Positions 23,822 to 38,842 of a stretch of 64,000 nucleotides of DNA are shown one piece after another; the stretch's first letter is position 1; every line of letters begins with the position of its first letter. The DNA comes from Lentimicrobiaceae bacterium. Its GTDB lineage: Bacteria; Bacteroidota; Bacteroidia; Bacteroidales; JAAYJT01. Under the pieces are notes generated by a model. The model did no database searches. It was not told the origin of the DNA and saw only the letters and a program-made list of their open reading frames with translations. The translations under genes and the position numbers were made by a program. The DNA lies in the NCBI GenBank assembly GCA_037446395.1, contig JBBIIP010000002.1, positions 53,074-117,073 of the forward strand, written 5' to 3'.

Positions 23822-23854
23822 AAAATCGGCGATAAGATATTAGTAAAAAACGTT

Positions 23855-23862
23855 CAAAATTA
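23855..23862 (-). promoter_or_regulatory. Candidate -7 promoter box (TAATTTTG) upstream of buk
   Basis: The reverse complement of caaaatta is TAATTTTG, 33 nt upstream of ATG 23821. This suggests buk can be transcribed independently of icmF. Confidence 0.3.
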
Positions 23863-23925
23863 ATGAAGTGTTCTGAAAAACAAAAATGAAATTAACACTC
23901 CTTGGGTAATAGATTCAACCATTGT

Positions 23926-26900
23926 TTACATGTTTCTTCGATATTGCCCGCCGACTTCAAACAAGGCTTCGGTGATCTGCCCCAATGAGCAATATTTTGT
24001 TGCACTCATCATGGCTTCGAAAGTATTCAGGTTGTTCATTGCGGCAAACTTCAGCATTGAAAGGCTATGCTGAGCCTCGTTTGAGTTGCGCTGATGAAGT
24101 GCCATCAGTGTCGAAATCTGTTGCTTTTTTTCTTCCTCAGTGGCACGGATAACAGTACCGGGAATAGTTGTGGGGGAGCCAGTGGAGGAGAGAAAAGTAT
24201 TTACTCCCATGATCGGCAACCTGCCATCGTGTTTAAGCTGCTCATAATAAAGCGATTCTTCCTGAATTTTATTGCGCTGGTACATTGTTTCCATGGCCCC
24301 CAACACCCCTCCACGTTCTGTCAGGCGATCAAACTCCTGCAGCACAGCTTCCTCAACCAGGTTGGTCAGGTAGTCAATGATATAAGCCCCTTGGAGCGGA
24401 TTTTGATTTTTGGCCAGCCCCAATTCGTGGTTTATGATCATCTGAATTGCTACGGCCCTGCGCACCGATTCTTCGGAAGGAGTGGTAATGGCTTCGTCGT
24501 AGGCATTGGTATGCAGTGAATTACAGTTATCATAAATTGCGCCAAGCCCTTGCAATGTGGTACGGATATCGTTGAATTCAATCTCCTGGGCGTGGAGCGA
24601 GCGCCCTGATGTTTGGATGTGATACTTCAACTTTTGGGAGCGGTCGGATGCTTTGTAAAGATGCTTCAGGGCTTTGGCCCAGATAAGCCTTGCCACGCGA
24701 CCGATCACTGTATATTCTGCATCCAGCCCGTTCGAAAAGAAAAAAGAAAAATTGGGTGCAAAAAGATCAACATGCATGCCCCTGGAACGATAATATTCAA
24801 GATATGTGAACCCGTTGGCCAGCGTAAAAGCCAATTGTGTAATTGGATTTGCCCCGGCTTCGGCAATGTGATAACCTGAAATGGAAACCGAATAGAAGTT
24901 TCTTACTTTGTTTTGTATAAAATATTCCTGAATATCACCCATCATGCGCAGTGCAAATTCAATTGAGAAAATGCAAGTGTTTTGTGCCTGGTCTTCTTTT
25001 AGGATATCAGCCTGCACAGTTCCGCGCAATATCGAAATCGTTTCCGCTTTAATTTTGTCATACACCTCGCCAGGCAGAACCTGGTCGCCGGTAACGCCGA
25101 GCAGCATCAGGCCAAGTCCATCATTTCCAGATGGAAGAAATCCGTTATAAACAGGGCGCTTGGCCATTTGACCCTCATATATTTCATTGATTTTTTCTTC
25201 AACCTGTTGCGTCAACCCTTGCTCCCGGATATATAGTTCGCATTGCTGATCAATGGCAGCGTTCATAAAAAAGCCCACAAGTGATGGGGCAGGGCCATTG
25301 ATGGTCATCGAAACCGAAGTAGCTTCATGGGCCAGATTGAAGCCTGAATAAAGCTTCTTGACGTCATCGAGACAACATACCGATACTCCAGAGTTTCCAA
25401 TTTTACCATAGATGTCGGGCCTGATATCAGGATTGCGGCCATATAAAGTCACCGAATCGAAAGCCGTGGATAATCGCCTTGCAGGCATTCCCATACTCAG
25501 GTAGTGGAATCGTTTATTGGTACGTTCAGGCGTACCTTCTCCGGCAAACATGCGCGTGGGATCTTCTGCTTCTCGTTTAAACGGAAAAACCCCTGCCGCA
25601 AAAGGAAACTCTCCGGGGACATTTTCTCTTAACTGCCACTTCAGCAGATCGCCCCATCCCGAGTAAGATGGAAGTGCAATTTTGGGTATCCTTGCATGCG
25701 AAAGCGTTTCGTTGGTGGTTTCAACCTGTATCTTTTTGTTTCTTACTGTGTAAGAAAATGTTCTATCAGCATATTTACGCGCTTTATCATTCCATCCTTC
25801 AATTAACCGAAGATTTTCGGGGGTGAGCTTTGACTTAACTTGAGATAAGCTTTGCTCAATGGAATCAAGCAGCTGGCTGTCGGAATTCTTTTCTCCTTTC
25901 AGCATTTTCAGGCTCACATGCAAGGCATAATATTGCTGTGCAATTGCCGATTGTTCTTCGCTCCACTGATTGTAGCCACGAACTGCACTTGAAATATCAG
26001 AAAGATAGCGCACCCTTGCTGCCGGAATTATTGGCGAAGCAATGGATTTCACATCAATTGCCTGAGTTGGCAGAGCAAATGGCTTTGAAGACCGTTGTGT
26101 AATCATCCTCATGAGCTCTATAAACATCCGGTTGATCCCCGGATCGTTGAATCGGGAAGCGATGGTTGGAAATATGGGAAGATCATCGGGAGCGATATCA
26201 AAGAGCAACCTGTTGCGTGTGTATTGTTTGCGTACATGGTTCAGGGCATCGGCGGCGCCTGGTCGGTCGGCTTTGTTCAGCAAAATTATATCGGCAAAAT
26301 CGAGCATGTCAATTTTTTCGAGCTGGATGGGTGCGCCAAATTCGGGAGTCATCACATACATAGCCAGGTTGCTGTGCTCAATTACCTGTGAGTCGCTTTG
26401 ACCAATACCTGAAGTTTCGAACAAAACGAGGTCAAATCCTGCATTTTTTACTACACACAATACATCGGCAATATGTTTCGAAAGCGCAAGATTGGCCTGG
26501 CGTGTGGCCAGCGAGCGCATAAATACATTCGGATGATGTGCTGAATTTATCCTGATCCGGTCCCCCAGCAAAGCCCCTCCTGAGCGTTTGCGGGTAGGGT
26601 CAACCGAAATAATGGCAATATGCTTATCAGGAAAATTCACAAGCAGACGGCGCAAAATTTCGTCAGTAACAGAAGATTTTCCCGACCCACCCGTTCCGGT
26701 AATCCCTACCACCGGCACCTGTGTGTGATTATAATCGCGATTGAATGATGATAATAGCTTTTTGGCAGTTTGAGGAAAATTTTCAATAGACGTTATCAGG
26801 CGGGCAATAGCTCTGGGATTGTCATAGCGAATGTCTTTTGGTTCGATTGCAAGTGTTTGCCCCAAAGGAAAATCAAGTTGTTGCACCATGTCGTTGATCA

Positions 26901-27300
26901 TGCCTTGCAGGCCCATCGCGCGTCCGTCGTCGGGCGAATAGATGCGAGCAATTCCGTAGGTGTGCAATTCTTCGATCTCGTGAGGCAGGATTACTCCACC
27001 GCCTCCTCCAAATATCTTTACATGGTCTCCGCCTCTTTCCTGCAACAAGTCATACATATACTTGAAATATTCCATGTGCCCGCCCTGGTATGACGATATA
27101 GCAATACCCTGCACATCTTCCTGTATGGCACATTCTACAATTTCGTTAACCGAACGGTCGTGCCCTAAATGGATTACTTCCACACCGGTAGCCTGAATGA
27201 TGCGCCGCATGACATTAATGGCAGCATCATGCCCGTCGAACAAAGAGGTTGCTGTAACGATCCGAATGTGGTTTTTAGGTTTATAAGGAATGATTGCCAT
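23926..27300 (-). CDS. icmF: Fused isobutyryl-CoA mutase (B12-binding domain + MeaB-like G-protein + mutase substrate domain)
   Basis: 1124 aa. N-terminal B12-binding domain ([13 protein letters not shown]), central P-loop GTPase ([16 protein letters not shown]) and C-terminal methylmalonyl-CoA-mutase-like TIM barrel. This is the IcmF architecture. Confidence 0.9.
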
Positions 27301-27555: not shown

Positions 27556-27789
27556 ATGCAATTACGTTTTAAGTGTTCTGAGTGTAACACCATCTTCGAA
27601 TCCGAAGGGGTTAAAGTTGAATACAATAGCCCCATTTATGGACCTTGCTGGAAATTTATGGGCCAATGTCCGGCATGTGATATGCAAAGCGATGAATATC
27701 GCGATCCCAGCCCGGGCAAAAAATCGGCACCTCAAACTCCATCTGCTTCACCAGGGTGTTGTTGTAGCGGAGGCAGTTGTGGGTTTTAA
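27556..27789 (+). CDS. FmdB-family zinc-ribbon protein with Cys/Gly-rich tail
   Basis: 77 aa. CSEC ... CPAC zinc-ribbon pairs and a C-terminal GCCCSGGSCGF tail, as seen in FmdB/CxxC_CxxC_SSSS small proteins. Confidence 0.6.
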   Translation: MQLRFKCSECNTIFESEGVKVEYNSPIYGPCWKFMGQCPACDMQSDEYRDPSPGKKSAPQTPSASPGCCCSGGSCGF

Positions 27790-27835: not shown

Positions 27836-28459
27836 CTATTTTATCAGGCCTAAGCCTTCTGAAGCCGAAGCATCACCAGGTCGGATCAGCAACGCTTTGT
27901 TGAAGAGTGCACGGGCTTCGCGGGGTTTGTTCAGTCTGAAGTTTGTCCAGGCAAACATTTGCACGGCATCATAATCGAAGGGATACATATTGGCGATGCG
28001 CTCAAAATGCTTCAGGGCCGACTGGTAGTCTTCGCGGTTATAGTATATCAATCCCATGCGGTAGTTTGTGAGATAATGATTGGCATCAATTTTTAAAATT
28101 TCCTGGTATCGCTTCACCACCTGGTCCCAATTGCCCATAGCCGATGCTGGCAAAGCAAAACCCAGCCGCGCTTCGATACTGAAAGGCATCAGTTGAATGG
28201 CTTTGTTGTAGTAGGCTGCCGACTCGGTAAATGACCCATGATTATATGTAAGCCAACCCAACCTGACATTAATTTCATAAGAAGTTTGGTTATATTCTTT
28301 TTTTAATATTTCAATTGCACGGGTGTAATCGCCGGCTGTTTCGGATTTATAGCTTGCTGCGAAGGCATCCTGAAGCGCTTTGTTATTTTGTGCCAACAAT
28401 TGTGTGGTAACAAATAAAAAAATCGAACAGGCAAACATTATCTTTCTCAAAGTTTCCAT
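27836..28459 (-). CDS. Secreted tetratricopeptide-repeat protein
   Basis: Signal peptide followed by repeated TPR-like A..Y..A/L...P helices across the whole length. The start overlaps the upstream gene by 13 nt. Confidence 0.7.
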   Translation of the reverse strand: METLRKIMFACSIFLFVTTQLLAQNNKALQDAFAASYKSETAGDYTRAIEILKKEYNQTSYEINVRLGWLTYNHGSFTESAAYYNKAIQLMPFSIEARLGFALPASAMGNWDQVVKRYQEILKIDANHYLTNYRMGLIYYNREDYQSALKHFERIANMYPFDYDAVQMFAWTNFRLNKPREARALFNKALLIRPGDASASEGLGLIK

Positions 28460-29817
28460 TTCAGTCCTCCCATGATATGGTGATTGTTAAATTTAACGAA
28501 ATTCGTTGTATAAGTATTGTTATTCAAATAACTGATGTAGCTATCCTGTTGCCTTACCAGGCTGTAATCGAACTGTAAAGTCATGCTTTTATTAATCAAA
28601 AGATATGCCGTGATTCCGGCTTTGGAGTTAATTGTGCCGCTAGTGTTAAAAAGGATTGAACCGTCATCATCAAACGTATTTTTCAGGTAGCCCCAGGCAT
28701 AATTTCCTTGCAGCCAAATGCCGGGCAGAATTTTGCCTCCTGCTCCAAGCTTATAGTGCCAATTGAATATATGATCTTCGGCCACAGCAGAAAAACGTGC
28801 AAATGTATAAAGATTAAGATTAGCATATGGATAAAGACTCATACCCAAGGCTCCCTGCCACTGATTGTTGTTGTTAAGGTAAGAATGTCCTGCTGCCCCG
28901 CTCAGGCTGAAATAGGGCATTTCTCTAACCAATTTAAGCAATGCAGTGTAATTATATATTGAATATTGAGGCCGGCTCGTGGTGTATTTGTTACTGAGAG
29001 GCACGTATTTCACCACATAAGGCCGGTCATTTATGTTAATCAGGTTAAATGAAGGAATAATATACAACCCGTTGGATATCCTGAAAGGCAGGCTGATGAA
29101 AAGTTGGTGCTGAAAGAGTGTATAATTATTGTCGAGTGTATCTGTTCCTGAAAAAATGATTCGCTGATGCTTGGCAAGTTGCAGGTGAGTGTAGCCCAAA
29201 TACCACCTGTATTGGGTGGCAGGTGAAAGAATAAAGCCTAAGTGCGCATACCGCAGCCTACCGCTTCCACTTATTTCGCCATAGATGTTTGCTGTTTGGT
29301 CCAGATCAATTTGTGCAATCTTTTTTGCAATGCCCGACATTGCACCGCCAGCAAAAACCGAAACTCCTTTAATGTAATTTTTATCGTGGCTGGATTGAAA
29401 GAAATGAGAATATCGTTTTGTGAGCGAGGCGGCTTCAAGGTCAAGCCCGCTCCATTGATAACCTTGGAGCAGATAGTTTGCAGCGTTTTTATCCCTCGAA
29501 TTAAACAAAAGTGCTTTTTCGAAGTGCCCGGCCGCCTTGCGATAGTGTTGTTGCATATAGTATGCAATACCCACCCGCATGCGCATATAAAAATAGTCGT
29601 GCCCCTGGGCAATTGCCTGGTTGCCAATTTTTATGAGGCTTTGCCACTGCCCTTGCAAATAAAGGGAATAGGTGATGCTGTCGGCTGTTTGAAATACCTT
29701 ACCTTTTTGAGCATACATTTCATGTGGCAAAATAATAAGCGTAAGAATCAGCAGATGTGATAACAGGCTGATATGCTTTCGTGAAAGAAACCATTTCAAG
29801 TTTTGTATTACTTTCAC
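28447..29817 (-). CDS. Signal-peptide protein with N-terminal TPRs and a beta-rich C-terminal half (outer-membrane barrel-like)
   Basis: N-terminal TPR-like helices (aa ~45-130). The following ~300 aa have alternating aromatic/polar beta-strand patterns rich in Y/G/N/S, ending ..GGLKWKL. Confidence 0.55.
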   Translation of the reverse strand: MKVIQNLKWFLSRKHISLLSHLLILTLIILPHEMYAQKGKVFQTADSITYSLYLQGQWQSLIKIGNQAIAQGHDYFYMRMRVGIAYYMQQHYRKAAGHFEKALLFNSRDKNAANYLLQGYQWSGLDLEAASLTKRYSHFFQSSHDKNYIKGVSVFAGGAMSGIAKKIAQIDLDQTANIYGEISGSGRLRYAHLGFILSPATQYRWYLGYTHLQLAKHQRIIFSGTDTLDNNYTLFQHQLFISLPFRISNGLYIIPSFNLININDRPYVVKYVPLSNKYTTSRPQYSIYNYTALLKLVREMPYFSLSGAAGHSYLNNNNQWQGALGMSLYPYANLNLYTFARFSAVAEDHIFNWHYKLGAGGKILPGIWLQGNYAWGYLKNTFDDDGSILFNTSGTINSKAGITAYLLINKSMTLQFDYSLVRQQDSYISYLNNNTYTTNFVKFNNHHIMGGLKWKL

Positions 29818-32063
29818 GACTCTACCTCCTTCGCATCTATCATAACCGTATTACTTTTCACCTTAAACAGCGAAATTCTACCTTTGCTCACACACATTTC
29901 AAAATCAACTGCCAAACTGAGCTTATTCAGCACAAACTGCCTGGTTTCTGCTTTCATCACGATACTGCTATCAACCAGGTTATCATCATTTTTAAGGTAA
30001 TACAGGGTATAATCTGCTGTTATGAAAGAATAAAATGGTGCAATAAAATCGTGCCAGAATAAGGCAAATCCTTTTTTAAAAGCACTTAGCGGATAAATAT
30101 CTTTAACTTCAAGTTTATTGTAATAGCCAAGTACAATTTTATAAGCTGCCAGGTAAAAGAAATAGAGAAAAGAATCTTTGTCGCCTTCAAAATGGTTGAA
30201 ATAAAACAAGTCTCCATCGCAGTGAAAATAAGCTTTTGATAGGGTTTCCCGGCATTCAAGATAGGTGTTATTATACATGTCTGACTTAACATCCAAGTGC
30301 TCTTTTTTCATTGGCTTACCATTTCTGTTCGTTTCAAAGCTCAGCGTTTGGCCCGGAATAAAACCGAATGTCTTCGATAAAGCTTCGTTTTTTACAGTAC
30401 CCGACACAAGTTGCCCTTTGAGTGGCCTGTCGTAGGTTTCTAATTGGTAATGATCTTTTTCTTTGACGAGATAATAGGCAAATGGATAATCAATGGTTTT
30501 TGAGCCAATGAACGGATCGGACTGGATCTGGAAGTGTAGGTGAGGCACAACCGATCTCCCCGAATTGCCGCACTGGGCAATGACCTCTCCCTTTTTAACA
30601 TAAGCGCCTTTGTAGGTTTTAATACTGCCCATCTTCAGATGGCATAGCTTGGTGTAGATTTTGTCGGAGTGTTTGATGACGATGGTATTTCCCCAATTGT
30701 TTCCCAAATTCATGTCGCCAATGGCATTATCCGGAATTCCTTGCAGAATTTCCTGAACCACTCCGTCGGCCGGTGCCAGTACAGGTTTTCCAAAACAGTA
30801 AAAATCCTTTTGTTCGAGGCCCATCCTGTCAAAATTCTTGCCTTCCTCATCGCAAATCTCGAAATCCCAGGCATGGCGCCAATCCTCTTTGTGGGTGTGT
30901 TCACCATTGTGGCCTTGAGAAACCACCCATTCGCCCATAAACGGAGGTGTGAGTTGGGTCGAAGTATTTACATCGAACCGTGATTTGTAGTTATTCTGGG
31001 AGTATAAATTTCGCTCAGGGGAAAATTGCTGAACCACCACGAGTTCAGGGCTATTGAAATGCCTTTCTCTGAACTTTAACACATACAGAAACAGCACCAC
31101 AATGATATTGAATGCAAGCGAATAAATGGGTAGGCCCAGCAGGTTAAATAACAAGCTGGTAGAAATAATAATGAAAGAGATGATGGGGGTGAGAAGAATA
31201 ACCCACAGAAATGAGTATTTTGACGGTACTATAAAAAAACCACCGATTGCAATGGCACTCAAAATATAGTTGAAGCCAATATAGCTGTAATTGAGTTCGG
31301 CCAGGTTGGCGCCGATCAATACATAATAGAAATAGGCAGCAAAAAAACCGAGAATCGAAAGCAGGAATGCAATTCTGGAATATATTAACAAGCCGATGGC
31401 CACAATCGCACCGGCCAGCAGGTGATATTGAAAGAAAATGGCAGCCAGCGATTTGAAATAGGTCGAAATGGAAGGATGCATAGGTAAATCGTTGACCCAG
31501 TAATAAAGCTTCACCATTTTTATCCCGCCATGTTCATAGATTTCGTTAAGTAGAAACAAGCCACGCTCACTCATGGCAAGAGCTGAAAACTCGCGCGATG
31601 CCAGGCTCACTATCCAGATGCCCAGCAAAAAAGCCCAACTCAGAGAGGGCAGTCCATACTTGCCAAAAAAACCATCTAGCCAAATGGTGAGCATAAATGT
31701 CAGAATAGCCGAAAACACCAGCACAAAAAAGAACTCGATGCCAGGCTGATAAAAAATGCCCATACCCAATCCAACCAGCAAACTGTTAAACCCATAAAAC
31801 CCCTGGGTTACCGTGTGTTTCCTAAATCCTATCGCGACTGCTGCCAAATTGGAAACAAATACCGCAATTAAACCACTCAGCCCTGCGATCCAGTCGAAAA
31901 AAGTAACAAGCAATAAGATGAGCGCAAAGGATTTTTGTTTCGAAAAAAACACCTGACTGTAGCTCAGAAGCACTCCTTCGCTGAAAAGGATGATATTTTT
32001 CTCGAGTTTTTGAATCATTGTGCCCGTTTCATGGTTGGAGATTATAAAGCAATCAAAGCTCAA
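29814..32063 (-). CDS. Urea-transporter-like polytopic membrane domain fused to an M23 metallopeptidase domain plus a C-terminal domain of unknown function
   Basis: About 340 aa of densely packed TM helices starting with the UT-like SQVFFSKQ motif. Then an M23 domain (HAWDF, GNSGRSVVPHLHFQIQ), then about 200 aa with no recognisable motif. Alternative start at M16 (32018). Confidence 0.65.
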   Translation of the reverse strand: MSFDCFIISNHETGTMIQKLEKNIILFSEGVLLSYSQVFFSKQKSFALILLLVTFFDWIAGLSGLIAVFVSNLAAVAIGFRKHTVTQGFYGFNSLLVGLGMGIFYQPGIEFFFVLVFSAILTFMLTIWLDGFFGKYGLPSLSWAFLLGIWIVSLASREFSALAMSERGLFLLNEIYEHGGIKMVKLYYWVNDLPMHPSISTYFKSLAAIFFQYHLLAGAIVAIGLLIYSRIAFLLSILGFFAAYFYYVLIGANLAELNYSYIGFNYILSAIAIGGFFIVPSKYSFLWVILLTPIISFIIISTSLLFNLLGLPIYSLAFNIIVVLFLYVLKFRERHFNSPELVVVQQFSPERNLYSQNNYKSRFDVNTSTQLTPPFMGEWVVSQGHNGEHTHKEDWRHAWDFEICDEEGKNFDRMGLEQKDFYCFGKPVLAPADGVVQEILQGIPDNAIGDMNLGNNWGNTIVIKHSDKIYTKLCHLKMGSIKTYKGAYVKKGEVIAQCGNSGRSVVPHLHFQIQSDPFIGSKTIDYPFAYYLVKEKDHYQLETYDRPLKGQLVSGTVKNEALSKTFGFIPGQTLSFETNRNGKPMKKEHLDVKSDMYNNTYLECRETLSKAYFHCDGDLFYFNHFEGDKDSFLYFFYLAAYKIVLGYYNKLEVKDIYPLSAFKKGFALFWHDFIAPFYSFITADYTLYYLKNDDNLVDSSIVMKAETRQFVLNKLSLAVDFEMCVSKGRISLFKVKSNTVMIDAKEVES

Positions 32064-33411
32064 ACTTTTTTAGGTGCACTGGCATTTTTTCCAACGCATT
32101 GAAAACCGCCATTGTTTCATTTTCGCGGATTATATGCACCTGGCTATCTGCATCAATTAGAACCACCTTTGGCCTGAGATTGATAAATTGCATCCACTGC
32201 GACATGTTGTAGGCCCCAACATGATGTATCACAAAATGATCGCCTTTGTTGAGCAGCGGAAGCACGGCGTTTTCGCGAATCACATCAATATTCATACACA
32301 AAGGGCCATACATAGTGGTTTCTTCGGTATATTGAGAGAACTCCTGGGCAGGAGTTATTTTATGATCATACCAGAACGAAGTAAATAACAAATTGATGCC
32401 AATATCAACAATGGTAGTTCTTTTGCCTGTTGACGAACGCTTATTTGAGATCACGGTTCCCAGCAAAAAGCCTGCTTCGTCAATTAAGGCGCGGCCCGAC
32501 TCAAGGATTAAGAGGGGCAGGTTTTCGGGAGGAAATTCAACAGCCAGCAGGGCAGAAGAAATTTCTTCGGCATAATCTTCGAACGATGGGGTTGTATCTG
32601 CACTCGGAAGATATGCACCTTTGAGTGTATTACGCGAGGGAAAACCTCCGCCAAGGTCTATGTATTTGATATTGTGGTTATAACGCCGCTTCAATCCCAA
32701 CGCCAGGTCAGAAAGTTTGGCTGCTGCAATGGCATAGGCCTTGGGGCTTAAAATATAGGTTCCAATATGGCAATGAAGCCCCACCAGGTCCATTTTGGCT
32801 GCTACCATGATTTTGTTGAGTGCATCCCAGGCCTGCCCGTTTTCATAATTAAACCCGAAACGGTCCCAGATGGGATAAATACCCGTATCCATGTTTACCC
32901 TGATGGCAACACGCGGGCGCTTTTCAAGCTTTTCGGCGAGCTCGGTAATGGTATAAAGCTCGTCGAGGTGGTCAATATGAATCAAGGAGTCGTTTGTGAT
33001 TGCCTTCGTTAGATCAGCCGTGGTTTTATCTGGCCCGTTAAAAATTATTTTGTTTCCCGGTACACCATTTTTAATGGCTTTATCGTATTCAAACCCTGAA
33101 ACTACTTCCGCCCAAGAGCCTTCCTGGTGGTAGATATTGCAAACTGCATCGAGATAATTTGTTTTGTATGACCATGCAAACTGAACTTTTGGATAACGCA
33201 TGGTAAATGCTTTTTTTGCTTTTTTGTAGGTGCTGCGAATACTTTTTTCGGAGATTACAAACAGTGGCGACCCATAGTCGGCAACCAGCTGGTTTACCGG
33301 CACCCCATCAATATGGGTTTTTGGGGTGCGATCAATCCGTCCGCCAAATTTGTTTGGCATCTCGGTTTCGAGGCGCTTGATGATAGGGCGTTCATATTTC
33401 AGTTTTTCCAT
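32053..33411 (-). CDS. Fold-type III PLP-dependent decarboxylase (Orn/DAP/Arg decarboxylase family)
   Basis: PLP-lysine context FAWSYKTN, HCHIGT, DLGGGFP, LILESGRALI, GPLCMNIDV and VGAYN match the DAP/ornithine decarboxylase family layout. Substrate unknown. Confidence 0.8.
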   Translation of the reverse strand: MEKLKYERPIIKRLETEMPNKFGGRIDRTPKTHIDGVPVNQLVADYGSPLFVISEKSIRSTYKKAKKAFTMRYPKVQFAWSYKTNYLDAVCNIYHQEGSWAEVVSGFEYDKAIKNGVPGNKIIFNGPDKTTADLTKAITNDSLIHIDHLDELYTITELAEKLEKRPRVAIRVNMDTGIYPIWDRFGFNYENGQAWDALNKIMVAAKMDLVGLHCHIGTYILSPKAYAIAAAKLSDLALGLKRRYNHNIKYIDLGGGFPSRNTLKGAYLPSADTTPSFEDYAEEISSALLAVEFPPENLPLLILESGRALIDEAGFLLGTVISNKRSSTGKRTTIVDIGINLLFTSFWYDHKITPAQEFSQYTEETTMYGPLCMNIDVIRENAVLPLLNKGDHFVIHHVGAYNMSQWMQFINLRPKVVLIDADSQVHIIRENETMAVFNALEKMPVHLKKFEL

Positions 33412-33468
33412 AATACTTGTGTCTGTATTTTCGATTTAAATGTTGATGATTGGATGATTCATAATTTG

Positions 33469-34524
33469 CTAAAGTTCTGCGTTTGTAGAGATTTGTTGAA
33501 ACTCCTCAATGTCAACAATCATATCCCAGGCATAACGTACGAACATTTTTCCAACCTTGTATCCAGTGAACGAAGAAACCGGCTCCCCCAAAGCAAGCTG
33601 CACCAATGCTTCCGGAATATTCTGCCCCACACCAACAGCCAAGTATATCCAGGCGGGCATGCGCGGATTAATCTCCAGAAGATAAAAGTCGTTGTTTTTG
33701 TCTTTCATCAATTCCAGTTCAAAACCCCCGCGCCATTTTGTCTGGCTGATAAAACGGTGGGTTAATTCAAGAATTCGCGGATCGGCAATAGAAATACCGC
33801 CCCAGGCTTTTCCCTTGTCGGTGATGTACTGTTTTCGCATGGGTACTGCCGCAATCGTGTTTCCAAAGCCGTCGCCCAAACCGGTAACGTTGAACTCGGC
33901 TCCATGTATAAACTCCTGCACTATGACCGGAGCCCCCCATTTTGCAGTGATTTTGTTGAAAAAATTTTTTGCCTGATCAACATTATATGCAACATAAGCA
34001 TCGTAGTATTTCCCTTTGACCAGCACAGGATATTGAAAATCCTTAGTTATGCTGTGCAGTGAAACCAGCTCGTGATACACTTTGCCTTTTGGGACCTTGA
34101 TGTTGTATTTTTTTCCAAACTCATCGAGGTTTACTTTGTGTCGTTCCTCGAATTGCTCCATGGTGGGCAAAAACATATGAATGCCGAGCTTCTTAAGTCG
34201 TTGCTCAAGGCGGATGAAAGGATACAATTCTGAATCGAAATTAGGAATAATTACATCCAGTTTTTCACGAGAGTGTATGTATTCCATCCGTTCAATAACA
34301 GCTTCGGTTCCTGCTGAAGGGTAGGGCACCTGGTAAGTTTTATCCACCAGGTTATGCATAAAAATTCCCGGCTCAAGAGATTCGTATGCCAATCCAATGA
34401 TGCGGCAATCAAATGATGTGGCCTCCTTTAGTCCGCGGATTACTGCAACCCCAGGGCCTGGACTGTCAATTGCATTAAGGCCTGAAACTGCAATGGTAAG
34501 TTGTTTTTTTTCAGTCATTTTCAA
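33469..34524 (-). CDS. ATP-grasp domain ligase
   Basis: PVLVKGKYYDA, VIVQEFIHGAEFNV and LLEINPRMPAW are ATP-grasp (carbamoyl-phosphate-synthase-like) motifs. Substrate unknown. Confidence 0.75.
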   Translation of the reverse strand: MKMTEKKQLTIAVSGLNAIDSPGPGVAVIRGLKEATSFDCRIIGLAYESLEPGIFMHNLVDKTYQVPYPSAGTEAVIERMEYIHSREKLDVIIPNFDSELYPFIRLEQRLKKLGIHMFLPTMEQFEERHKVNLDEFGKKYNIKVPKGKVYHELVSLHSITKDFQYPVLVKGKYYDAYVAYNVDQAKNFFNKITAKWGAPVIVQEFIHGAEFNVTGLGDGFGNTIAAVPMRKQYITDKGKAWGGISIADPRILELTHRFISQTKWRGGFELELMKDKNNDFYLLEINPRMPAWIYLAVGVGQNIPEALVQLALGEPVSSFTGYKVGKMFVRYAWDMIVDIEEFQQISTNAEL

Positions 34525-34756
34525 CGAGTGAATAATGTCCGAGCAGCCCTATAAAATCTTCAAAATCCTTTTCGAATGTTGCAAAATCAATACTGTATTT
34601 TTCGGAAACCAACGTGGCAACTTCTTGTTGACCTTTTCCGTCTTTCAGAAAGTTGATAATTTCTGCACCCATGGGATTCACAGTAAAAGACTCACCAGTG
34701 TCCGGATTAAAAATCAAACCGGATGCGCTTACCGCAATGTTTTTTTTTATTTTCAT
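34511..34756 (-). CDS. PqqD-family (RRE-like) small protein
   Basis: 81 aa. The pattern ..SGLIFNPDTGESFTVNPMGAEIINFLKDGKGQQEVATLVSEKY..D..DFIGLL resembles PqqD/RRE domains. The 3' end overlaps the ATP-grasp start by 14 nt. Confidence 0.65.
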   Translation of the reverse strand: MKIKKNIAVSASGLIFNPDTGESFTVNPMGAEIINFLKDGKGQQEVATLVSEKYSIDFATFEKDFEDFIGLLGHYSLVEND

Positions 34757-35633: not shown

Positions 35634-36449
35634 TTATTGTTTGATGATTTTTAGGACCTGTTTCTTGTTTCCTTGCTCTGCAATGAAAAAGTAAATACCT
35701 TTATCAACAATGTGGCCGCTCATGTCTTTGCCATCCCAAGTAAACTCATTTTCATCCGAGCGGGCTTTTGGGTTAAAAATGAAGTGCCTCAGGTTTCGTC
35801 CCAGATTATCGTAAATTTTCACATTGACTGGCAATTTGCTTTCGCTTCTTAGTGCAATATGGGCGTATTCCGAAAATGGATTTGGGAAGCAATCAAATAT
35901 TATTGTGTTTGCTAATTCATCCTGTATTCCAACTGTTGATTTCGGAATCCATTGCAATGACATGTTTGTAAAATTAGTTTGATTTGCAGGTGTAAGGGTT
36001 TGCGCTTGCGGGCCTTTGCTGAAAGGTATATAATGCAGTTTACCGGTAGCATTTGCCGAAGTAAATTCAATATAAATCCGGTAATTGCCATCGGGAACCA
36101 GGTTGCCATTGACATCTTTTCCATCCCAGGAAACCGAGTGCGTGATATGGTTTGGCAAAGTTGGCCCGGTAATGGCATCAATAACATTAAAAGTATTGCC
36201 GGTAGCATTCCGGAAGTTAGTAAGGTATTGCCTATAAACGGGATGTTGGGCCAGAAGTTTTCGTGTTTTAACCCATTGAGCATTTTCGTTGCTTATCCAT
36301 ATAGCGAATATATGCAAAGGCGAATAAGGAGCTGAGTAATTAATCGTAGTGACTGAAAAAGAAAGAGTGCCGGGAGTTTGGCAATACAACACAGGTGCCG
36401 CTAATAAGCAGAGTACCAAAAGCCATGCTTTCAATATTTTATGTTTCAT
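35634..36449 (-). CDS. T9SS C-terminal-sorting-domain secreted protein with FlgD-Ig-like and possibly DUF2271-like modules
   Basis: Signal peptide. SWDGKDVNGNLVPDGNYRIYI is a FlgD-Ig-like motif. The N-terminal PYSPLHIFAIWISNENAQWVKT resembles DUF2271, but that is a weak call from memory. C-terminal CFPNPFSEY...VKIYDNLGR...GIYFF is a T9SS sorting domain. Start moved to ATG 36449 because a -7 box overlaps the ORF-track start. Confidence 0.7.
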   Translation of the reverse strand: MKHKILKAWLLVLCLLAAPVLYCQTPGTLSFSVTTINYSAPYSPLHIFAIWISNENAQWVKTRKLLAQHPVYRQYLTNFRNATGNTFNVIDAITGPTLPNHITHSVSWDGKDVNGNLVPDGNYRIYIEFTSANATGKLHYIPFSKGPQAQTLTPANQTNFTNMSLQWIPKSTVGIQDELANTIIFDCFPNPFSEYAHIALRSESKLPVNVKIYDNLGRNLRHFIFNPKARSDENEFTWDGKDMSGHIVDKGIYFFIAEQGNKKQVLKIIKQ

Positions 36450-36458
36450 AATAATACG

Positions 36459-36466
36459 CAAAAATA
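36459..36466 (-). promoter_or_regulatory. Candidate -7 promoter box (TATTTTTG)
   Basis: The reverse complement of caaaaata is TATTTTTG, about 10 nt upstream of ATG 36449. This implies a near-leaderless transcript. Confidence 0.25.
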
Positions 36467-36535
36467 CAATATTGAGGATTAAAAATGGCGTGAAATTCAG
36501 TTGTTTAAGTGTTTTTTCATCGAAGGATTCATAGG

Positions 36536-37549
36536 TTAGCTTTTTCTAATTGCATCTTGTGGGCAAATATCCTCGCACTTGCTGCACTTTTGGCATCTCT
36601 TCTGGTCAATCACGGCTTTATAACGCTCAACCGCAACCGCTTCCGAAGGGCACAACGCAGCACAAACACCACAATTATTGCAGATATTTTGATTCAAAAC
36701 AGGTTCGGAATACTCCGTAGGCGCAATAAAATATATTGCCTCGTCGGGGCAGGCAGGATAACAATTTCCGCAACGAATACACTTCTTCAGGTCAATATAC
36801 GGTTTGGTATTTGTCGGATTTCCTTCCTTGGTGATTCCATTATCGGTGCACACCTGGAAGCACTTTCCACATTTTATACATTTGGTTTGATCAATGGCAA
36901 CCTTTGCCTTAATGATGGCATTGTATCTGCATTTATTAAAGCACTTTCCGCAACGTGTGCATTTGGACGTATCTATAACAGCCTTATTATTAACTTTTCT
37001 GATTGCAGCCGAAGGGCAAACCGAAGAACACTCAGATACACAACCCTGGCAACGCGAATTAATAACCGAATAATATTGAACCGTATACTTTATGGCGTTC
37101 CCCTGCAAGGCACAGGCCTCAATGCACTTACCACATCCAACGCAATTGCCCGATATACTATACTTAAGAGCGCTGGTAGGCAATACAATGGCGTTTGATT
37201 TGCACACCGGAAGGCATTTGCCACACAAGGTGCACTTTTCTGGGGTGATGAAAAAATCAATAGAAGTGATTTCGATGGCTTTTACCTTGCAAGCATTTTC
37301 GCAAATGCAACAACTGATGCATTTCTCTGGCAAAATTGAATACTTGCTCCGCTGGGGCAACACCACAGCGGAATAATAGCATACATCAAAACAAGCACCG
37401 CATCCGATGCATTTTTCATCAATCACTTCATAAGCGGCATAAAGCCCTTCATCGGTGCACGACTTTATTGCGGGTGCAACCATCAAAAGCGCGCCACCTT
37501 TGAGAAGCTTTCCAATAAATTCCCTGCGTTGATATTTGTTTGGTTCCAT
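36536..37549 (-). CDS. Tat-signal polyferredoxin with ten [4Fe-4S]-type cysteine motifs
   Basis: Twin-arginine leader QRREFIGKLLKGGALLMVAP. Ten motifs spaced about 30 aa apart: CIGCGACFDVC, CISCCICENAC, CTLCGKCLPVC, CVGCGKCIEAC, CQGCVSECSSVC, CTRCGKCFNKC, CIKCGKCFQVC, CIRCGNCYPAC, CNNCGVCAALC and CQKCSKCEDIC. Confidence 0.85.
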   Translation of the reverse strand: MEPNKYQRREFIGKLLKGGALLMVAPAIKSCTDEGLYAAYEVIDEKCIGCGACFDVCYYSAVVLPQRSKYSILPEKCISCCICENACKVKAIEITSIDFFITPEKCTLCGKCLPVCKSNAIVLPTSALKYSISGNCVGCGKCIEACALQGNAIKYTVQYYSVINSRCQGCVSECSSVCPSAAIRKVNNKAVIDTSKCTRCGKCFNKCRYNAIIKAKVAIDQTKCIKCGKCFQVCTDNGITKEGNPTNTKPYIDLKKCIRCGNCYPACPDEAIYFIAPTEYSEPVLNQNICNNCGVCAALCPSEAVAVERYKAVIDQKRCQKCSKCEDICPQDAIRKS

Positions 37550-37579
37550 GTTTCAGTTCAATCTTGTTTTAATGGCAGT

Positions 37580-38842
37580 TTATAAGCTAACCCTGAATTC
37601 GAACCTTCCCAGAAAAGCATCATCTTTCAGTAGGTTGCTTTTTATAAAACCTCCAATCGCGCTTGCCTGCATGTGTTTCCCAATTTTTTTTACAATGGCC
37701 AGGTCAAGTTCCTGCATTGGGTTTTGCCTGGTCTGTAATATATATTGCAGTTTCAGGTGGGTTCTGATTTCCGGAAGCCTGTATCGGATGGCTAACTGAA
37801 CGAAAGGCAAATCCATGGCGTCGAGACGAAGCACATTTCCGGCAAAAATATTGCTAAAAGAATTCAATGCTTTGGCGTTGGCATCAAGTGCGTAGATTCC
37901 ATAGTAGCGCAAATAAAAATGCGTTCTGCTTTTCGAGCCATTGAGCGACTTTTCGAGCCCTAGTGTAAATATTAAGGCTTGATTGTTTTGAGAAGCCTGG
38001 TATAAAATTTCGGGCTTAAAATAGATGTCTGCCGGTAATCGAAACTCAGAAAACAGCCCACCAATAAACACATTTTCCGGAACCCATGATCCAAACTCAT
38101 CATACAGGGCAATACCTGCTGTTTCGAGCGAAAATTTTCTTGAACCAGAAGTTTCCGTGCCAATTGCATTTGAGAAACCATCAGGCGAAAATTCATCCAG
38201 GTTTTCCGTTGATTGCTTTTTTGTCATCTTCGAAGGGGTGAATTTGAAAGTTACCCCGCTGAAATTTGTCTGACCGGGTTTGTTTCCTATCAAAGGCAAC
38301 TGGCGGCCTGGAATGATGTCGTAAAGATAGCTGACGGCACAAAAAATTCCATTGCGGGCAAAATCCTTGGTGACTGTTCCGCCAGAAAAATTCACTGCCC
38401 ATGCGCCTTTTGTGTGCTCATAATTAATGCCGATCATTCTTTCGTTGAACAGGTAGTCGTCGTCAAAACGTGCCGATTGCAGCCCGAGAGTAATTCTCCC
38501 AACGGGGCTTCGATATTGGTAAAACAATTCACGCAGGCCAAAATGCTGGTCGCTGAAGCTGGCATCTTTTTCCAGGTCGTAACGATACCAATACTTAAAT
38601 CCACCCTCGATATAGAACGTAGATTTTTCACCCGAACGATCTATGCCCAAATAGCCCATACCATTTATGATTGAATTATCTGTCAGATAACCAAGCCCTC
38701 CGGTGATTTCGGAACCAACGTAAAACTTGCTCTTACCGATGGGCTTCAAAAATGCGGCCAATTGGCTGGGACATTCCCATTGAGCCAACAACCCCAATGG
38801 GAGGGCGATCAAAAGCAGAATTATAAATAATCCTTTTCTCAT
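37580..38842 (-). CDS. Outer-membrane beta-barrel-like protein, function unknown
   Basis: Signal peptide (LLAQ). 420 aa rich in alternating aromatic/G/S/N beta-strand patterns, with a C-terminal ..GRFEFRVSL. No enzymatic motif. Confidence 0.6.
   Translation of the reverse strand: MRKGLFIILLLIALPLGLLAQWECPSQLAAFLKPIGKSKFYVGSEITGGLGYLTDNSIINGMGYLGIDRSGEKSTFYIEGGFKYWYRYDLEKDASFSDQHFGLRELFYQYRSPVGRITLGLQSARFDDDYLFNERMIGINYEHTKGAWAVNFSGGTVTKDFARNGIFCAVSYLYDIIPGRQLPLIGNKPGQTNFSGVTFKFTPSKMTKKQSTENLDEFSPDGFSNAIGTETSGSRKFSLETAGIALYDEFGSWVPENVFIGGLFSEFRLPADIYFKPEILYQASQNNQALIFTLGLEKSLNGSKSRTHFYLRYYGIYALDANAKALNSFSNIFAGNVLRLDAMDLPFVQLAIRYRLPEIRTHLKLQYILQTRQNPMQELDLAIVKKIGKHMQASAIGGFIKSNLLKDDAFLGRFEFRVSL

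Follow-up and report, generated by a model that had tools for sequence, protein, structure and literature searches.

The window analysed here, a stretch of 64,000 nucleotides from a Lentimicrobiaceae bacterium, carries six minus-strand open reading frames between positions 27836 and 34756, and these form a real, tightly packed operon (Table 1). All six were present at the coordinates given by an initial annotation, and the Pfam and NCBIfam matches, together with AF2 models, agree with the domains which that annotation had assigned to each protein, including TPR repeats in both downstream products. The junctions that it described (overlaps of 14, 11, 4 and 13 nt and one 57-nt gap) are correct for the open reading frames, but two gene starts need correction. 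Because homologues of the ATP-grasp ligase are 349 aa long, its start was moved to the ATG at 34518, which leaves an 8-nt overlap with the PqqD gene. Likewise, the start of the UT-M23 fusion was moved to 32018 because its homologues are 734 aa long, so that a 34-nt gap to the decarboxylase gene replaces the 11-nt overlap.

Table 1. Features of the operon and its surroundings, with positions in the window.
Feature	Coordinates	Strand	Basis or remark
PqqD-family RRE-type small protein, 81 aa, cytoplasmic	34511..34756	-	Pfam PqqD 1.3e-9
ATP-grasp ligase, 349 aa from ATG at 34518	33469..34518	-	ORF to 34524 (351 aa); Pfam ATPgrasp_Ter
Fold-type III PLP decarboxylase, 452 aa, FigC/BtrK/DAPDC clade	32053..33411	-	nearest solved structure FigC 7kh2
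Y-E-R-P-I-I, [YF]xxPx[ILV] motif, decarboxylase codons 6-11	33379..33396	-	alignment of 22 decarboxylases
Three-part UT / M23 / beta-rich fusion, 734 aa	29814..32018	-	ORF to 32063 (749 aa); Pfam UT + M23, AF2 model
Secreted TPR + outer-membrane beta-barrel protein, 456 aa	28447..29817	-	AF2 model, fold matches
Secreted TPR protein, 207 aa, probably periplasmic	27836..28459	-	multiple TPR Pfam families
T9SS-sorted protein, 263 aa	34789..35580	-	Por_Secre_tail 1.1e-9; 32 nt upstream of PqqD gene
HMA (MxCxxC) + AraC-HTH regulator, 201 aa	41955..42560	-	Pfam HTH_18 5e-16; HMA 2.5e-4

Two further genes upstream deserve attention. The short spacer between the T9SS-sorted protein gene and the PqqD gene leaves little room for a promoter; the former is a lineage-specific accessory that is probably co-transcribed here, and about 21 of 80 loci have a homologue of it immediately before the PqqD gene. 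The HMA-AraC protein, whose HMA match is just under the cut-off and which contains an MSCHCC motif, is the probable regulator of the operon: in 32 loci a homologue precedes PqqD on the same strand by no more than 300 nt, and 40 of 79 loci have one within 10 kb. In the window its gene lies 7.2 kb upstream, displaced by a block of other genes.

Conservation of the operon and a four-gene core

A co-occurrence survey bore out the view that the six genes are one unit, since all six are colinear on one strand in 50 of the 53 related loci with enough flanking sequence. The triad of PqqD, ligase and decarboxylase occurs in 69 of 70 related loci, and the median intergenic distances range from -20 to +46 nt, an arrangement that is far beyond chance. 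In 78 of the 79 Bacteroidales loci, the PqqD gene directly precedes the ligase gene.

Outside this order, a core of four genes (PqqD, ATP-grasp ligase, decarboxylase and UT fusion) was found in several bacterial phyla, including an organism with 75.6% GC (L084), Kiritimatiellota B12222 (L094), high-GC soil organisms (L081-83, L090) and assembly GCA_003353785.1 (L096), which holds a minimal four-gene locus. A Desulfobacteraceae contig (L097) breaks off within the decarboxylase gene, downstream of PqqD and two ligases. PqqD is directly upstream of the ligase in 9 of 11 distant core loci, the exceptions being L091, with a 283-nt gap, and L093, where the contig begins at the ligase. Some loci vary the scheme, with M23 replaced by SIR2, the ligase doubled, or the ligase fused to the decarboxylase; the 871-aa fusion protein in L088 and L089 upholds the functional coupling of these two enzymes which had been suggested earlier. 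A related TPR protein is usually next to the core, and a profile HMM of the 207-aa TPR orthologues recovered such proteins beside it in distant phyla (1e-17 to 1e-34). The distant loci and this cross-phylum partner thus support the assignment of the UT fusion and the TPR/barrel proteins to the same system. The cross-phylum core, the UT-SIR2 fusion, the YxxP motif of the decarboxylase and the likely HMA-AraC regulator were all absent from the initial annotation.

Signatures of the encoded proteins

The decarboxylase matches Orn_Arg_deC_N (6.5e-29) and Orn_DAP_Arg_deC in Pfam, and its motifs SYKTN, H(C)HIGT, DLGGGF, E(S/T)GRAL and GAYN are, as previously noted, intact and near-invariant in 71 orthologues. 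Its closest solved relative is FigC (7kh2, 1.3e-58), followed by LysA (2e-42) and BtrK (6e-27). The residues T344, W347, Y348, C372-M-N-I-D376, Y401 and Q405 are invariant in the same 71 orthologues and conserved across phyla. A Met stands beside the catalytic Cys, as in FigC, where enzymes that bind free side-chain amines have an acidic residue, and the DAP-binding Arg is replaced by Thr. Judged from these alignments, the specificity residues are unlike those of any characterised member, with a signature that is neither of the LysA nor of the citryl type, and the enzyme belongs with those acting on conjugated amino acids, namely FigC and BtrK. Substrates within this clade are amino acids conjugated to a larger moiety, for example citrate, a carrier protein or a peptide-nucleotide, and that of the clade member MccE is a ribosomal peptide-nucleotide (PMC7857480).

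A likeness to the rhizoferrin enzymes FigA/FigC (FslA/FslC) of Francisella lies in the proposed order of side-chain ligation followed by fold-type III PLP decarboxylation of the conjugate, and FigC shares with the present enzyme both the Cys-Met motif and the Thr of the specificity helix. The ligation there is however performed by an NIS synthetase instead of an ATP-grasp ligase, the citrate-binding His357 and Arg387 of FigC are Ile and Gln here, the score against the FslC model is 241 against a cut-off of 500, and FigC is not accompanied by PqqD, UT fusion or TPR partners.

Of 22 aligned decarboxylases, 13 of them Bacteroidales orthologues and 9 taken from distant loci, 21 carry a [YF]xxPx[ILV] motif in an N-terminal extension of about 20-30 aa, the exception being L081 with YEPMRL. 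In the ligase-decarboxylase fusion the motif lies in the linker between the two domains. Given that alignments to FigC and LysA start at query residues 38 and 32, respectively, this N-terminal stretch is without an aligned counterpart in either. It is the only place in the cluster where a conserved RRE-type YxxPx[ILV] motif occurs. The YxxP motif has been described as a frequent handle for RRE engagement (PMC13622209), and we propose that it is a candidate docking peptide for the PqqD protein. Since both the motif and the PqqD gene persist despite the fusion of ligase and decarboxylase, simply tethering the two enzymes cannot be all that PqqD does.

The ATP-grasp ligase (ATPgrasp_Ter, 1.7e-11) shares 67-87% identity with its orthologues across the Bacteroidales and has an invariant Mg/ATP motif, E282-I-N-P-R. 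By its Pfam assignment it is not of the graspetide type, and the PDB search returned no close solved relative (best E-value 1.5e-4).

The PqqD protein has its best NCBIfam match in the lasso-peptide PqqD chaperone, and the pairing of a PqqD-type RRE (B1) with a YxxPxL leader in lasso peptides is mirrored by the [YF]xxPx[ILV] motif of this cluster. The motif is here on the N-terminus of a 452-aa enzyme and not on a short precursor, and the operon is devoid of a lasso cyclase, B2 protease or core peptide. The initial annotation had considered a small carrier or peptide as substrate. No conserved short ORF was found upstream of PqqD, and a search of both strands within 1.5 kb of the cluster in 79 loci gave no conserved YxxP-containing ORF of 10-70 aa; the minimal L096 locus, which has no room for it, also argues against a precursor gene there.

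A comparison with LysW carriers, likewise raised before, fares no better. The coupling of a small-protein gene to an ATP-grasp gene is reminiscent of LysW/LysX, and a metallohydrolase could free the end product in both. The acidic C-terminal attachment site of LysW is nevertheless strictly conserved, whereas the PqqD tails vary in length and sequence and share no conserved C-terminal residue, one homologue being tail-less altogether; a LysW-type carrier is excluded on these grounds, and the downstream enzymes are different as well. The suggested parallel with butirosin biosynthesis (BtrI/BtrJ/BtrK) holds in so far as both systems couple an ATP-grasp enzyme with a DAPDC-like decarboxylase, whose substrate here too would be a tethered amino acid, and a protecting group would be put on and later taken off. 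The operon however encodes no acyl carrier protein, which rules out a BtrI/J/K system, and its PqqD-fold small protein has no conserved attachment residue; genes for a monooxygenase, an acyltransferase and a cyclotransferase are also absent from it.

The fusion protein (UT 7.7e-55, Peptidase_M23 2.8e-17) opens with a UT-type channel (residues 1-317), which a linker helix connects to an M23 domain (about 360-520); a beta-rich domain (about 540-734) forms the C-terminus. The AF2 model (pLDDT 83.9) supports this architecture, and a PDB sequence search gave no match to the C-terminal domain. In structural comparison the channel resembles the Desulfovibrio urea channel (TM-score 0.83-0.85), with most pore motifs kept, also across phyla, and M23 folds were matched too. 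It differs from that family in its score against the bacterial urea transporter model (113.8, cut-off 274.6), in both constriction Thr residues being Ser, and in one ladder Glu being Ala. The M23 residues H376, D385, H450, H460, H493 and H495 do not vary among 54 Bacteroidales homologues and, except for H450, hold in a five-sequence cross-phylum alignment. Lys and Arg are abundant at either end of the UT domain, and SIR2 occupies the position of M23 in other lineages; as SIR2 requires NAD+, this implies a cytoplasmic C-terminal domain, and we infer that M23 faces the cytoplasm. The UT + M23 combination has been listed, with neither function nor gene context, in a survey of UT proteins (PMC12998343).

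In the 456-aa protein a signal peptide precedes a TPR region (about 42-140) and a beta-barrel (149-455) of about 14-16 strands (AF2 model, pLDDT 83.3). It is kept in position in 53 loci at an identity of only 22-47%. The best fold matches of the barrel are FadL/TodX, at a moderate TM-score of 0.45-0.55, as opposed to 0.26-0.32 for polysaccharide porins, so the modelled barrel seems to resemble small-molecule channels more than polysaccharide porins. The proposed export of a polymer is therefore a poor fit, and no polymer synthase is present among the six conserved genes.

A putative envelope-tied pathway and its alternatives

The combination had not been recognised as a characterised pathway, and our literature and database searches likewise found no description of the system. 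We suggest, with a probability of roughly 40%, that it is an uncharacterised envelope-tied pathway in which an amide-linked amine is made, cut at the UT channel and received by the TPR/barrel proteins. We infer the following order of events. In the cytoplasm, the ATP-grasp ligase would join a carboxylate and an amino acid through an amide bond, and the decarboxylase would then strip the alpha-carboxylate from the conjugated amino acid, so that a primary amine in amide linkage results. The PqqD-type protein, whose translation is coupled to that of the ligase, would dock the decarboxylase through its N-terminal YxxPx[ILV] peptide and would present no precursor peptide. The amide-cleaving domain on the cytoplasmic C-terminus of the channel, M23 here and SIR2 in other phyla, would cut the conjugate at the channel mouth and let a small neutral product pass to the periplasm, from where, in Bacteroidota, the periplasmic TPR protein and the TPR-bearing barrel of about 14 strands may move it to or across the outer membrane. 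In PCAT transporters and ClbP-type prodrug activation a hydrolase is also joined to membrane passage, and cleavage and translocation could be coupled in a similar manner; this is a parallel from general knowledge and not one of homology, given that the UT channel is not an ABC transporter and that the hydrolase is M23 or SIR2, predicted to be cytoplasmic.

Certain observations count against this pathway. M23 and SIR2 normally act on peptides or acyl-lysine and not on small molecules, and a UT pore is expected to admit nothing but very small neutral solutes. Ligation, decarboxylation and amide cleavage would yield no obvious product that suits such a pore. The persistence of PqqD and its putative docking motif where the enzymes are already fused, and the moderate TM-scores of the barrel, also weigh against it.

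A possible, if doubtful, alternative is a write-and-erase modification of an envelope precursor, with the epsilon-amine of stem-peptide DAP/Lys (in UDP-MurNAc-peptide or lipid II) as one candidate target. An acidic or diamino acid would be attached via its side chain by the ligase and turned by the decarboxylase into an omega-amino-acyl or aminoalkyl branch, which the membrane-anchored M23 or SIR2 domain would take off again; the TPR/barrel proteins would bind or sense the modified wall. M23 DD-endopeptidases cleave acyl bonds at the epsilon-amine of DAP/Lys and sirtuins cleave N-epsilon-acyl-lysine, so that the two alternative domains share a bond type, and stem-peptide branching by an ATP-grasp D-aspartate ligase offers a precedent. 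The neighbourhood also points this way: the cluster directly follows mrdA-rodA in 13-15 loci and murE-murF-mraY-murD in L092, an Acyl_transf_3/HGSNAT-type membrane acyltransferase adjoins about 15 loci, a polysaccharide-type flippase (Polysacc_synt family) is inserted in L071, and envelope-type signalling modules are attached in L090 (ECF sigma and anti-sigma-TPR protein) and L094 (Ser/Thr kinase-TPR and FHA protein). The very high conservation of the enzymes suggests an invariant substrate. On the other hand, only a minority of loci adjoin peptidoglycan genes, an arrangement that could reflect inherited synteny, the UT pore motifs kept across phyla are unexpected for a mere membrane anchor, the RRE fold is not known as a binder of D-amino-acid stem peptides, no such peptidoglycan modification has been reported in Bacteroidota, and a branch on the DAP epsilon-amine would hinder normal 4-3 cross-linking.

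The view favoured by the initial annotation, a RiPP or peptide-scaffold pathway, would now require a precursor encoded elsewhere in the genome, with PqqD presenting the peptide to the ligase, the decarboxylase modifying the added residue, and M23 removing a leader or freeing the product at the channel. PqqD is a typical RRE coupled to the ligase in nearly all loci, the fusion of a peptidase to a membrane protein is reminiscent of leader removal coupled to export, MccE provides a ribosomal substrate in the same clade, and precursors as short as 21-22 aa have been overlooked before (PMC13622209). We consider this unlikely in view of the fruitless ORF searches, the tightness of L096 and the non-graspetide ligase; a peptide cannot traverse a UT pore, and RiPP clusters do not usually show enzyme identities of this level across families together with one specificity signature across phyla.

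Quite improbable is an uptake or salvage route, in which barrel, TPR protein and UT channel import a small amide or ureido compound that the hydrolase and the two enzymes process for nitrogen or polyamine metabolism. UT channels facilitate passage in both directions and their pore motifs are kept, FadL/TodX-like barrels are uptake channels, an ECF sigma/anti-sigma pair and a TonB_C protein adjoin some loci, and seven loci contain inserted aminotransferase or MtnA-like (IF-2B family) genes. An ATP-consuming ligase is nonetheless unexpected in catabolism, the core is not accompanied by a conserved urease, amidase or other gene of nitrogen assimilation, and small amides are not what M23 and SIR2 domains hydrolyse. 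An ordinary LysA/SpeC lysine or polyamine decarboxylase beside unrelated genes, which the match to the lysA model (TIGR01048, 1.1e-64) would favour, is hardly credible, as that match scores 218.6 against a cut-off of 297.9, FigC is nearer, the DAP-binding Arg and the acidic residue beside the catalytic Cys are both invariantly replaced, and gene order is kept across phyla together with the ligase-decarboxylase fusion.

The new elements are a four-gene core shared across phyla, its domain swaps and fusions, the absence of a precursor gene along with a motif on the decarboxylase instead, and a usual TPR companion. Enzyme identities of 67-87% across families and peptidoglycan neighbours in two lineages count against the putative envelope-tied pathway, being easier to reconcile with a structural role in the envelope than with the secretion of a metabolite.

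Operon layout and conservation in Bacteroidota

The six minus-strand genes described in the initial annotation, together with their junctions, were reproduced exactly in the ORF list. They encode PqqD (81 aa), an ATP-grasp ligase, a 452-aa fold-type III PLP decarboxylase, a fusion protein composed of a UT channel, an M23 domain and a beta-rich C-terminal domain, a 456-aa TPR-barrel protein and a 207-aa TPR protein, and the domains claimed for them were borne out by Pfam and NCBIfam (PqqD, ATPgrasp_Ter, two-domain Orn/DAP/Arg decarboxylase, UT plus Peptidase_M23, and TPR in two proteins). Based on homologue lengths, the start of the ligase was moved to the ATG at 34518 (349 aa, 8-nt overlap with the PqqD gene) and that of the fusion protein to 32018 (734 aa, 34-nt gap after the decarboxylase gene). 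Promoter and terminator scans of the window remained at chance level, the models of the promoter tool being ones that do not cover Bacteroidota.

The survey of co-occurrence proposed with the initial annotation was performed on the best 80 loci of at least 591 species with a close ligase relative, one genome being scanned per species. These loci are mostly labelled as Bacteroidales, Lentimicrobiaceae, Prolixibacteraceae or Draconibacterium assemblies, with a few other labels. All six genes are present, with order and strand unchanged, in 50 of the 53 loci with sufficient flank, the PqqD-ligase-decarboxylase triad is present in 69 of 70, and the junctions are short or overlapping. The ligase alone matches more than 6,000 database proteins, the best 120 of which are at least 72% identical, and the partner genes accompany it in the 80 loci examined; the source names of its relatives, such as 'carbamoyl-phosphate synthase large subunit', are uninformative. 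Identity to the window protein is highest for the ligase (67-87%) and the decarboxylase (67-86%), followed by the UT-M23 fusion (43-68%), PqqD (38-79%), the 207-aa TPR protein (46-73%) and the TPR-barrel protein (22-47%). Several loci carry additional genes within the operon. A class I/II aminotransferase lies between the decarboxylase and fusion genes in five (L050, L059, L066, L071 and L075), a histidine kinase in three and a DUF4405 protein in two, and an IF-2B/MtnA-like protein is inserted in the operon in two others (L067 and L080). The aminotransferase and IF-2B/MtnA-like genes may serve the supply or recycling of an amino-acid substrate.

Upstream of the operon lies a regulator with an HMA-like and an AraC-type domain. 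In 32 related loci its homologues precede the PqqD gene by 90-300 nt on the same strand, so that it is probably the operon regulator and may respond to a metal; the literature searched offered nothing useful on HMA-AraC regulators. In the window the two are separated by an inserted gene block, three members of which have homologues adjoining PqqD-ligase-decarboxylase in a locus without the UT-M23 and TPR genes (L068). A membrane acyltransferase of the Acyl_transf_3/HGSNAT type, a class of enzymes that acylate extracytoplasmic glycans, is a recurrent neighbour. At the other end, a convergent 77-aa protein with a Cys/Gly-rich tail (PGCCCSGGSCGF) is conserved downstream of the operon in two related loci (L002 and L011), and the 3' end of its gene contains a hairpin, GCAGTTGT...ACAACTGC, facing the operon end. 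Two further ORFs of 359 and 1124 aa lie just downstream of the operon. By eye we take the first to resemble butyrate kinase and the second a B12-dependent acyl-CoA mutase with its G-protein chaperone (IcmF-like), a reading that, if true, suggests a fermentative anaerobe.

Coordinates of the operon, its neighbours and genes of related loci (window positions unless a locus is named)
Feature	Position	Strand	Remarks
Six-gene operon	27836-34756	-	
C-terminal beta-rich domain of fusion protein	29814-30401	-	residues ~540-734
HMA-like (MSCHCC, MxCxxC) and AraC-HTH regulator	41955-42560	-	201 aa; 7.2 kb from operon
Five-gene block between regulator and operon	35634-40640	-	T9SS-sorted DUF2271/FlgD_ig protein; polyferredoxin with eight 4Fe-4S motifs and RREF twin-arginine-like N-terminus; 420-aa outer-membrane-looking protein without Pfam match; 471-aa Fer4_5-motif membrane protein; 122-aa lipoprotein-like protein
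Acyl_transf_3/HGSNAT-type membrane acyltransferase	40928-41992	+	354 aa; homologues beside the cluster in ~15 of 80 loci
77-aa convergent protein	27556-27789	+	two CxxC pairs; no Pfam match
359-aa and 1124-aa ORFs	22742-27300	-	
Ligase-decarboxylase fusion, L088	10001-12616		
Ligase-decarboxylase fusion, L089	4864-7479		
SIR2 fusion, L081	13544-15217		
SIR2 fusion, L090	7099-8769		
SIR2 fusion, L091	6084-7583		
mur genes followed by PqqD and ligase, L092	655-8567		44.5% GC; murE-murF-mraY-murD; a secreted 140-aa protein is the sole separator

The core system in other phyla

A search with the ligase against 1.84 billion cluster representatives returned 230 clusters below 1e-30, including proteins of ~710 aa with two tandem ATP-grasp domains. 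The loci around such distant relatives vary in gene content. An organism of 75.6% GC (L084) harbors the full six-gene set; another of 60% GC (L086) encodes PqqD, ligase, decarboxylase, UT-M23, TPR and a separate 307-aa protein. In the complete genome of Kiritimatiellota B12222 (CP120722.1, L094), a Ser/Thr kinase with TPR and an FHA protein are found with PqqD, ligase, decarboxylase and UT-M23, and the locus of GCA_003353785.1 (L096) consists of the four core genes only, i.e., PqqD, ligase, decarboxylase and UT fusion. Four high-GC loci (L081-L083 and L090, two of them NCBI assemblies) combine PqqD and decarboxylase with a double ligase and a UT-SIR2 fusion, and a locus of 68.5% GC (L091) likewise has PqqD, decarboxylase and a double ligase, together with a SIR2 protein whose N-terminal membrane region receives no UT call from Pfam. 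Two separate ligase genes are present in a Desulfobacteraceae locus (L097). Ligase and decarboxylase are fused in one 871-aa protein in two loci of 65% GC (L088 and L089), where the following gene encodes a 637-aa protein with no UT match and a faint adenylate/guanylate cyclase-like match (E 0.05).

SIR2 fusions of the L081, L090 and L091 type always occur with a double ATP-grasp ligase, both halves of which keep the E-x-N-P/A-R motif, and the SIR2 domain of L081 contains the GAGVS, TQNVD and HG motifs and a Cys4 zinc ribbon. UT-SIR2 loci have one of two kinds of neighbour beside the core: a secreted TPR protein, or an ECF sigma factor paired with an anti-sigma-TPR protein. This pair occurs in L090; the other regulators seen at the core are a sigma-54 two-component pair in L081, a hybrid PAS kinase in L088 and, in L094, a Ser/Thr kinase together with an FHA protein. 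An HMM based on the 207-aa TPR protein recovers the core-adjacent TPR proteins of distant loci at 1e-17 to 1e-34 and passes over an unrelated TPR protein in L084. The gene content of the distant loci therefore defines the conserved system as PqqD, one or more ligases, decarboxylase and a UT protein that carries M23 or SIR2 as a fused domain; a related TPR protein usually accompanies these, and some lineages have added the TPR-barrel.

Predicted roles of the individual proteins

The PLP-enzyme motifs quoted in the initial annotation are present in the decarboxylase and nearly invariant in 71 orthologues. The closest solved structure belongs to FigC, an N-citrylornithine decarboxylase (1.3e-58), followed by LysA (2e-42) and BtrK (6e-27). 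The enzyme scores 218.6 against the lysA model TIGR01048 (cut-off 297.9) and 241.4 against the FslC model NF041039 (cut-off 500), thus below both. Specificity determinants have been named in the FigC paper (PMC7857480) and were transferred to the window enzyme via pairwise alignments. On the specificity helix, the Arg with which LysA binds the distal DAP carboxylate (R343 in M. jannaschii) is Thr in FigC and Thr344 here. The position following the catalytic Cys is acidic in enzymes that bind a free side-chain amine and Met in FigC; here it is Met373, so that the LysA-type C-E-S-x-D reads C-M-N-I-D. The citrate ligands of FigC, His357 and Arg387, correspond to Ile375 and Gln405. These four residues are invariant among the 71 orthologues, as are Trp347, Tyr348, Tyr401 and Trp406, and nearly all loci of other phyla retain the patterns T..WY, GPLCM[NQ].D and GAY..[TS]Q, with L081 deviating in T..WY.

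Since both scores and active-site residues differ, the decarboxylase is neither LysA nor a citryl-amino-acid decarboxylase. LysA identity is excluded by the score together with the replaced DAP-binding Arg and post-Cys acidic residue, and the FigC/FslC citrate siderophore (NIS) pathway by the replaced citrate ligands, the FslC-model score and the absence of an NIS synthetase from the cluster proteins of the window and the genes listed for the distant loci. Judged from its sequence, the enzyme belongs to the clade whose members decarboxylate amino acids bound to a larger group, and all members of this family appear to have one substrate class in common. FigA/FigC and BtrJ/BtrK follow the same logic as this operon, a ligase and then a decarboxylase. 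The butirosin BtrI/J/K module itself, in which the intermediate is a thioester on an acyl carrier protein, is ruled out, given that no carrier-protein domain is present in the ten window proteins or the genes listed for the distant loci.

PqqD (Pfam 1.3e-9) is of the standard RRE type, closest to the lasso-peptide chaperone model, and its gene overlaps that of the ATP-grasp ligase, which places an RRE protein beside a modifying enzyme. Lasso leaders use a YxxPxL motif. The RiPP-type precursor or carrier envisaged in the initial annotation was not found in or beside the cluster: the 450 nt upstream of PqqD contain no conserved short ORF, and a scan of both strands in 79 loci, reaching 1.5 kb from the cluster, gave no conserved ORF of 10-70 aa with [YF]xxPx[ILVM] near its start. 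The matches of the latter scan were unrelated or out-of-frame artefacts, plus a truncated decarboxylase N-terminus in L053, and the four-gene locus L096 offers no spare coding space for a precursor. A graspetide pathway, which would pair an ATP-grasp macrocyclase of the graspetide type with a precursor containing repeated Thr/Ser/Lys and Asp/Glu residues, is likewise dismissed, the ligase matching only ATPgrasp_Ter and generic ATP-grasp models and no precursor being present. LysW-type carriers have a conserved acidic residue for attachment at the C-terminus. PqqD is no such carrier, because its C-termini differ in length and sequence among 79 Bacteroidales and 7 distant proteins, and one homologue (L086) stops at the last helix without a tail.

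A candidate partner of PqqD is the decarboxylase itself. Its N-terminal stretch of ~20-30 residues has no aligned counterpart in FigC and LysA and carries [YF]xxPx[ILV] in 21 of 22 aligned sequences, reading YERPII in the window protein (MEKLKYERPIIKRLE). The YxxP motif has been described as a frequent RRE handle (PMC13622209), and given its conservation here we favor the interpretation that PqqD would dock the decarboxylase through this N-terminal motif. The same pattern is found in the linker of the ligase-decarboxylase fusion (YVRPSI) amid diverged flanking residues; as neither the motif nor the PqqD gene has been lost in the fusion, tethering the two enzymes would not be the only role of PqqD.

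The fusion protein was modeled with AlphaFold2 (pLDDT 83.9) as a UT domain, a linker helix, an M23 fold and a beta-rich C-terminal domain of ~195 residues. The UT domain superimposes on the Desulfovibrio urea channel (3me1) with a TM-score of 0.83-0.85 and scores 186.5 bits against Pfam UT (cut-off 25); the score against the urea-transporter equivalog model is 113.8 (cut-off 274.6). Compared with the Desulfovibrio channel, the pore motifs Q-V-x-F in the first half and F-N-x-x-L and L-P-x-x-[ST]-x-x-F in both halves are kept; F-N-x-x-L covers the F80 site, for which the PDB has a mutant structure. Ser replaces both Thr residues of the constriction and Ala replaces Glu187, in a numbering that partly follows the 2009 structure paper. 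The pore motifs can also be recognized, with variation, in the proteins of other phyla.

The M23 domain (Pfam 63.1 bits, cut-off 28.7; fold matches ShyA, EnpA and DipM) retains H376, D385, H460, H493 and H495 across phyla. As H382 is not conserved in this way, H376 and D385 probably make up the first metal pair, spaced H-x8-D and not HxxxD. The domain comes after the last UT helix, Lys and Arg are abundant on both sides of the UT part, and in other lineages the M23 position is taken by SIR2, an NAD-dependent domain. In UT proteins the N- and C-termini both lie within the cell. Taken together, these features point to a cytoplasmic location of the M23 and C-terminal domains, and an M23 domain tethered to the membrane on this side is unusual. 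For an M23 (LytM) enzyme to reach the peptidoglycan sacculus, an extracytoplasmic position is required. M23 DD-endopeptidases act on acyl bonds formed with the epsilon-amine of DAP or Lys, and the substrate that sirtuins cleave is N-epsilon-acyl-lysine; by analogy, the chemistry common to the two domains would be cleavage of an amide on a side-chain amine. The C-terminal domain is modeled at pLDDT ~90 and conserved more weakly in UT-M23 proteins of other phyla. It has no Pfam match and no match in a profile search against PDB sequences, and the whole-protein fold search is dominated by UT and M23 matches, leaving it unclassified.

In the model of the 456-aa protein (pLDDT 83.3), a signal peptide is followed by a TPR domain and then by a barrel of ~14-16 strands. 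Best matches of the barrel are the 14-strand small-molecule channels FadL and TodX (E down to 2e-11, TM 0.45-0.55), compared with TM 0.26-0.32 for the polysaccharide porins PelBC, AlgE and BcsC. In the exporters PgaA, BcsC, AlgK/E and PelB, TPRs are joined to a porin of 16-18 strands and accompanied by a polymer synthase, whereas TPR and barrel occur here without a synthase. The polymer export suggested initially was discarded on the grounds of barrel size, weak porin scores and the lack of a synthase or glycosyltransferase among the six conserved genes. The architecture also resembles that of the Slam/type XI translocon, with TPR and a DUF560 14-strand barrel; the 207-aa protein has a weak TPR_Slam match (1.4e-4, below cut-off), the barrel has no DUF560 match, and Slam is not among the fold matches.

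Proposed pathway and competing explanations

By these comparisons the cluster falls outside the definitions of RiPP clusters, graspetides, LysW systems, the butirosin module, LysA, NIS siderophores and TPR-porin exporters. We rate the system as lying outside the known kinds and infer its function. The initial annotation had recognized no characterized pathway; in agreement with this, the system is not described in the incomplete literature library searched, where its sole trace is an entry for the UT and M23 domain combination that assigns no function (PMC12998343).

In the pathway that we prefer, with a probability of about 0.4 for the whole chain, the ligase would form an amide, the decarboxylase, held in place by PqqD, would act on the conjugated amino acid, and the M23 or SIR2 domain would cut the amide at the membrane. 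A small product could then pass through the UT channel and be handed on by the TPR proteins and the barrel.

The main rival, which we consider unlikely, is a reversible amino-acyl modification of peptidoglycan or another envelope precursor. It would agree with the bond preference common to M23 and SIR2, with the fact that the cluster follows mrdA-rodA in 13-15 loci and murD in L092, with the recurrent Acyl_transf_3 neighbour and with the very high conservation of the enzymes, but the conserved motifs of the UT channel speak against it. A RiPP with its precursor encoded elsewhere is improbable, an uptake or salvage route more so, and a plain LysA can be practically discounted.

A broader formulation, tentative and on balance somewhat unlikely, is that of a new multi-phylum envelope system with two features that would lack precedent: an RRE would dock an enzyme, in place of a precursor peptide, through a leader-like YxxP handle, and a UT channel would be fused to interchangeable M23 and SIR2 amide-cleaving domains. 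Such a system would gate delivery of an amine-bearing metabolite to the periplasm or reverse a cell-wall amino-acyl mark, and TPR proteins wired to sigma factors or kinases would sense the result.

The core reaches Kiritimatiellota, Desulfobacteraceae and high-GC organisms, and the four-gene locus together with the cultured, fully sequenced Kiritimatiellota B12222 makes the system directly testable. If the proposed roles are true, the function of RREs would extend to docking an enzyme, bacterial UT channels would gain a role beyond urea uptake, and the tethering of M23 or SIR2 domains on the apparently cytoplasmic side of a channel would be explained. The system may also bring to light a new metabolite or a new way of modifying the cell wall in anaerobic Bacteroidales, a group abundant in sediments and digesters.
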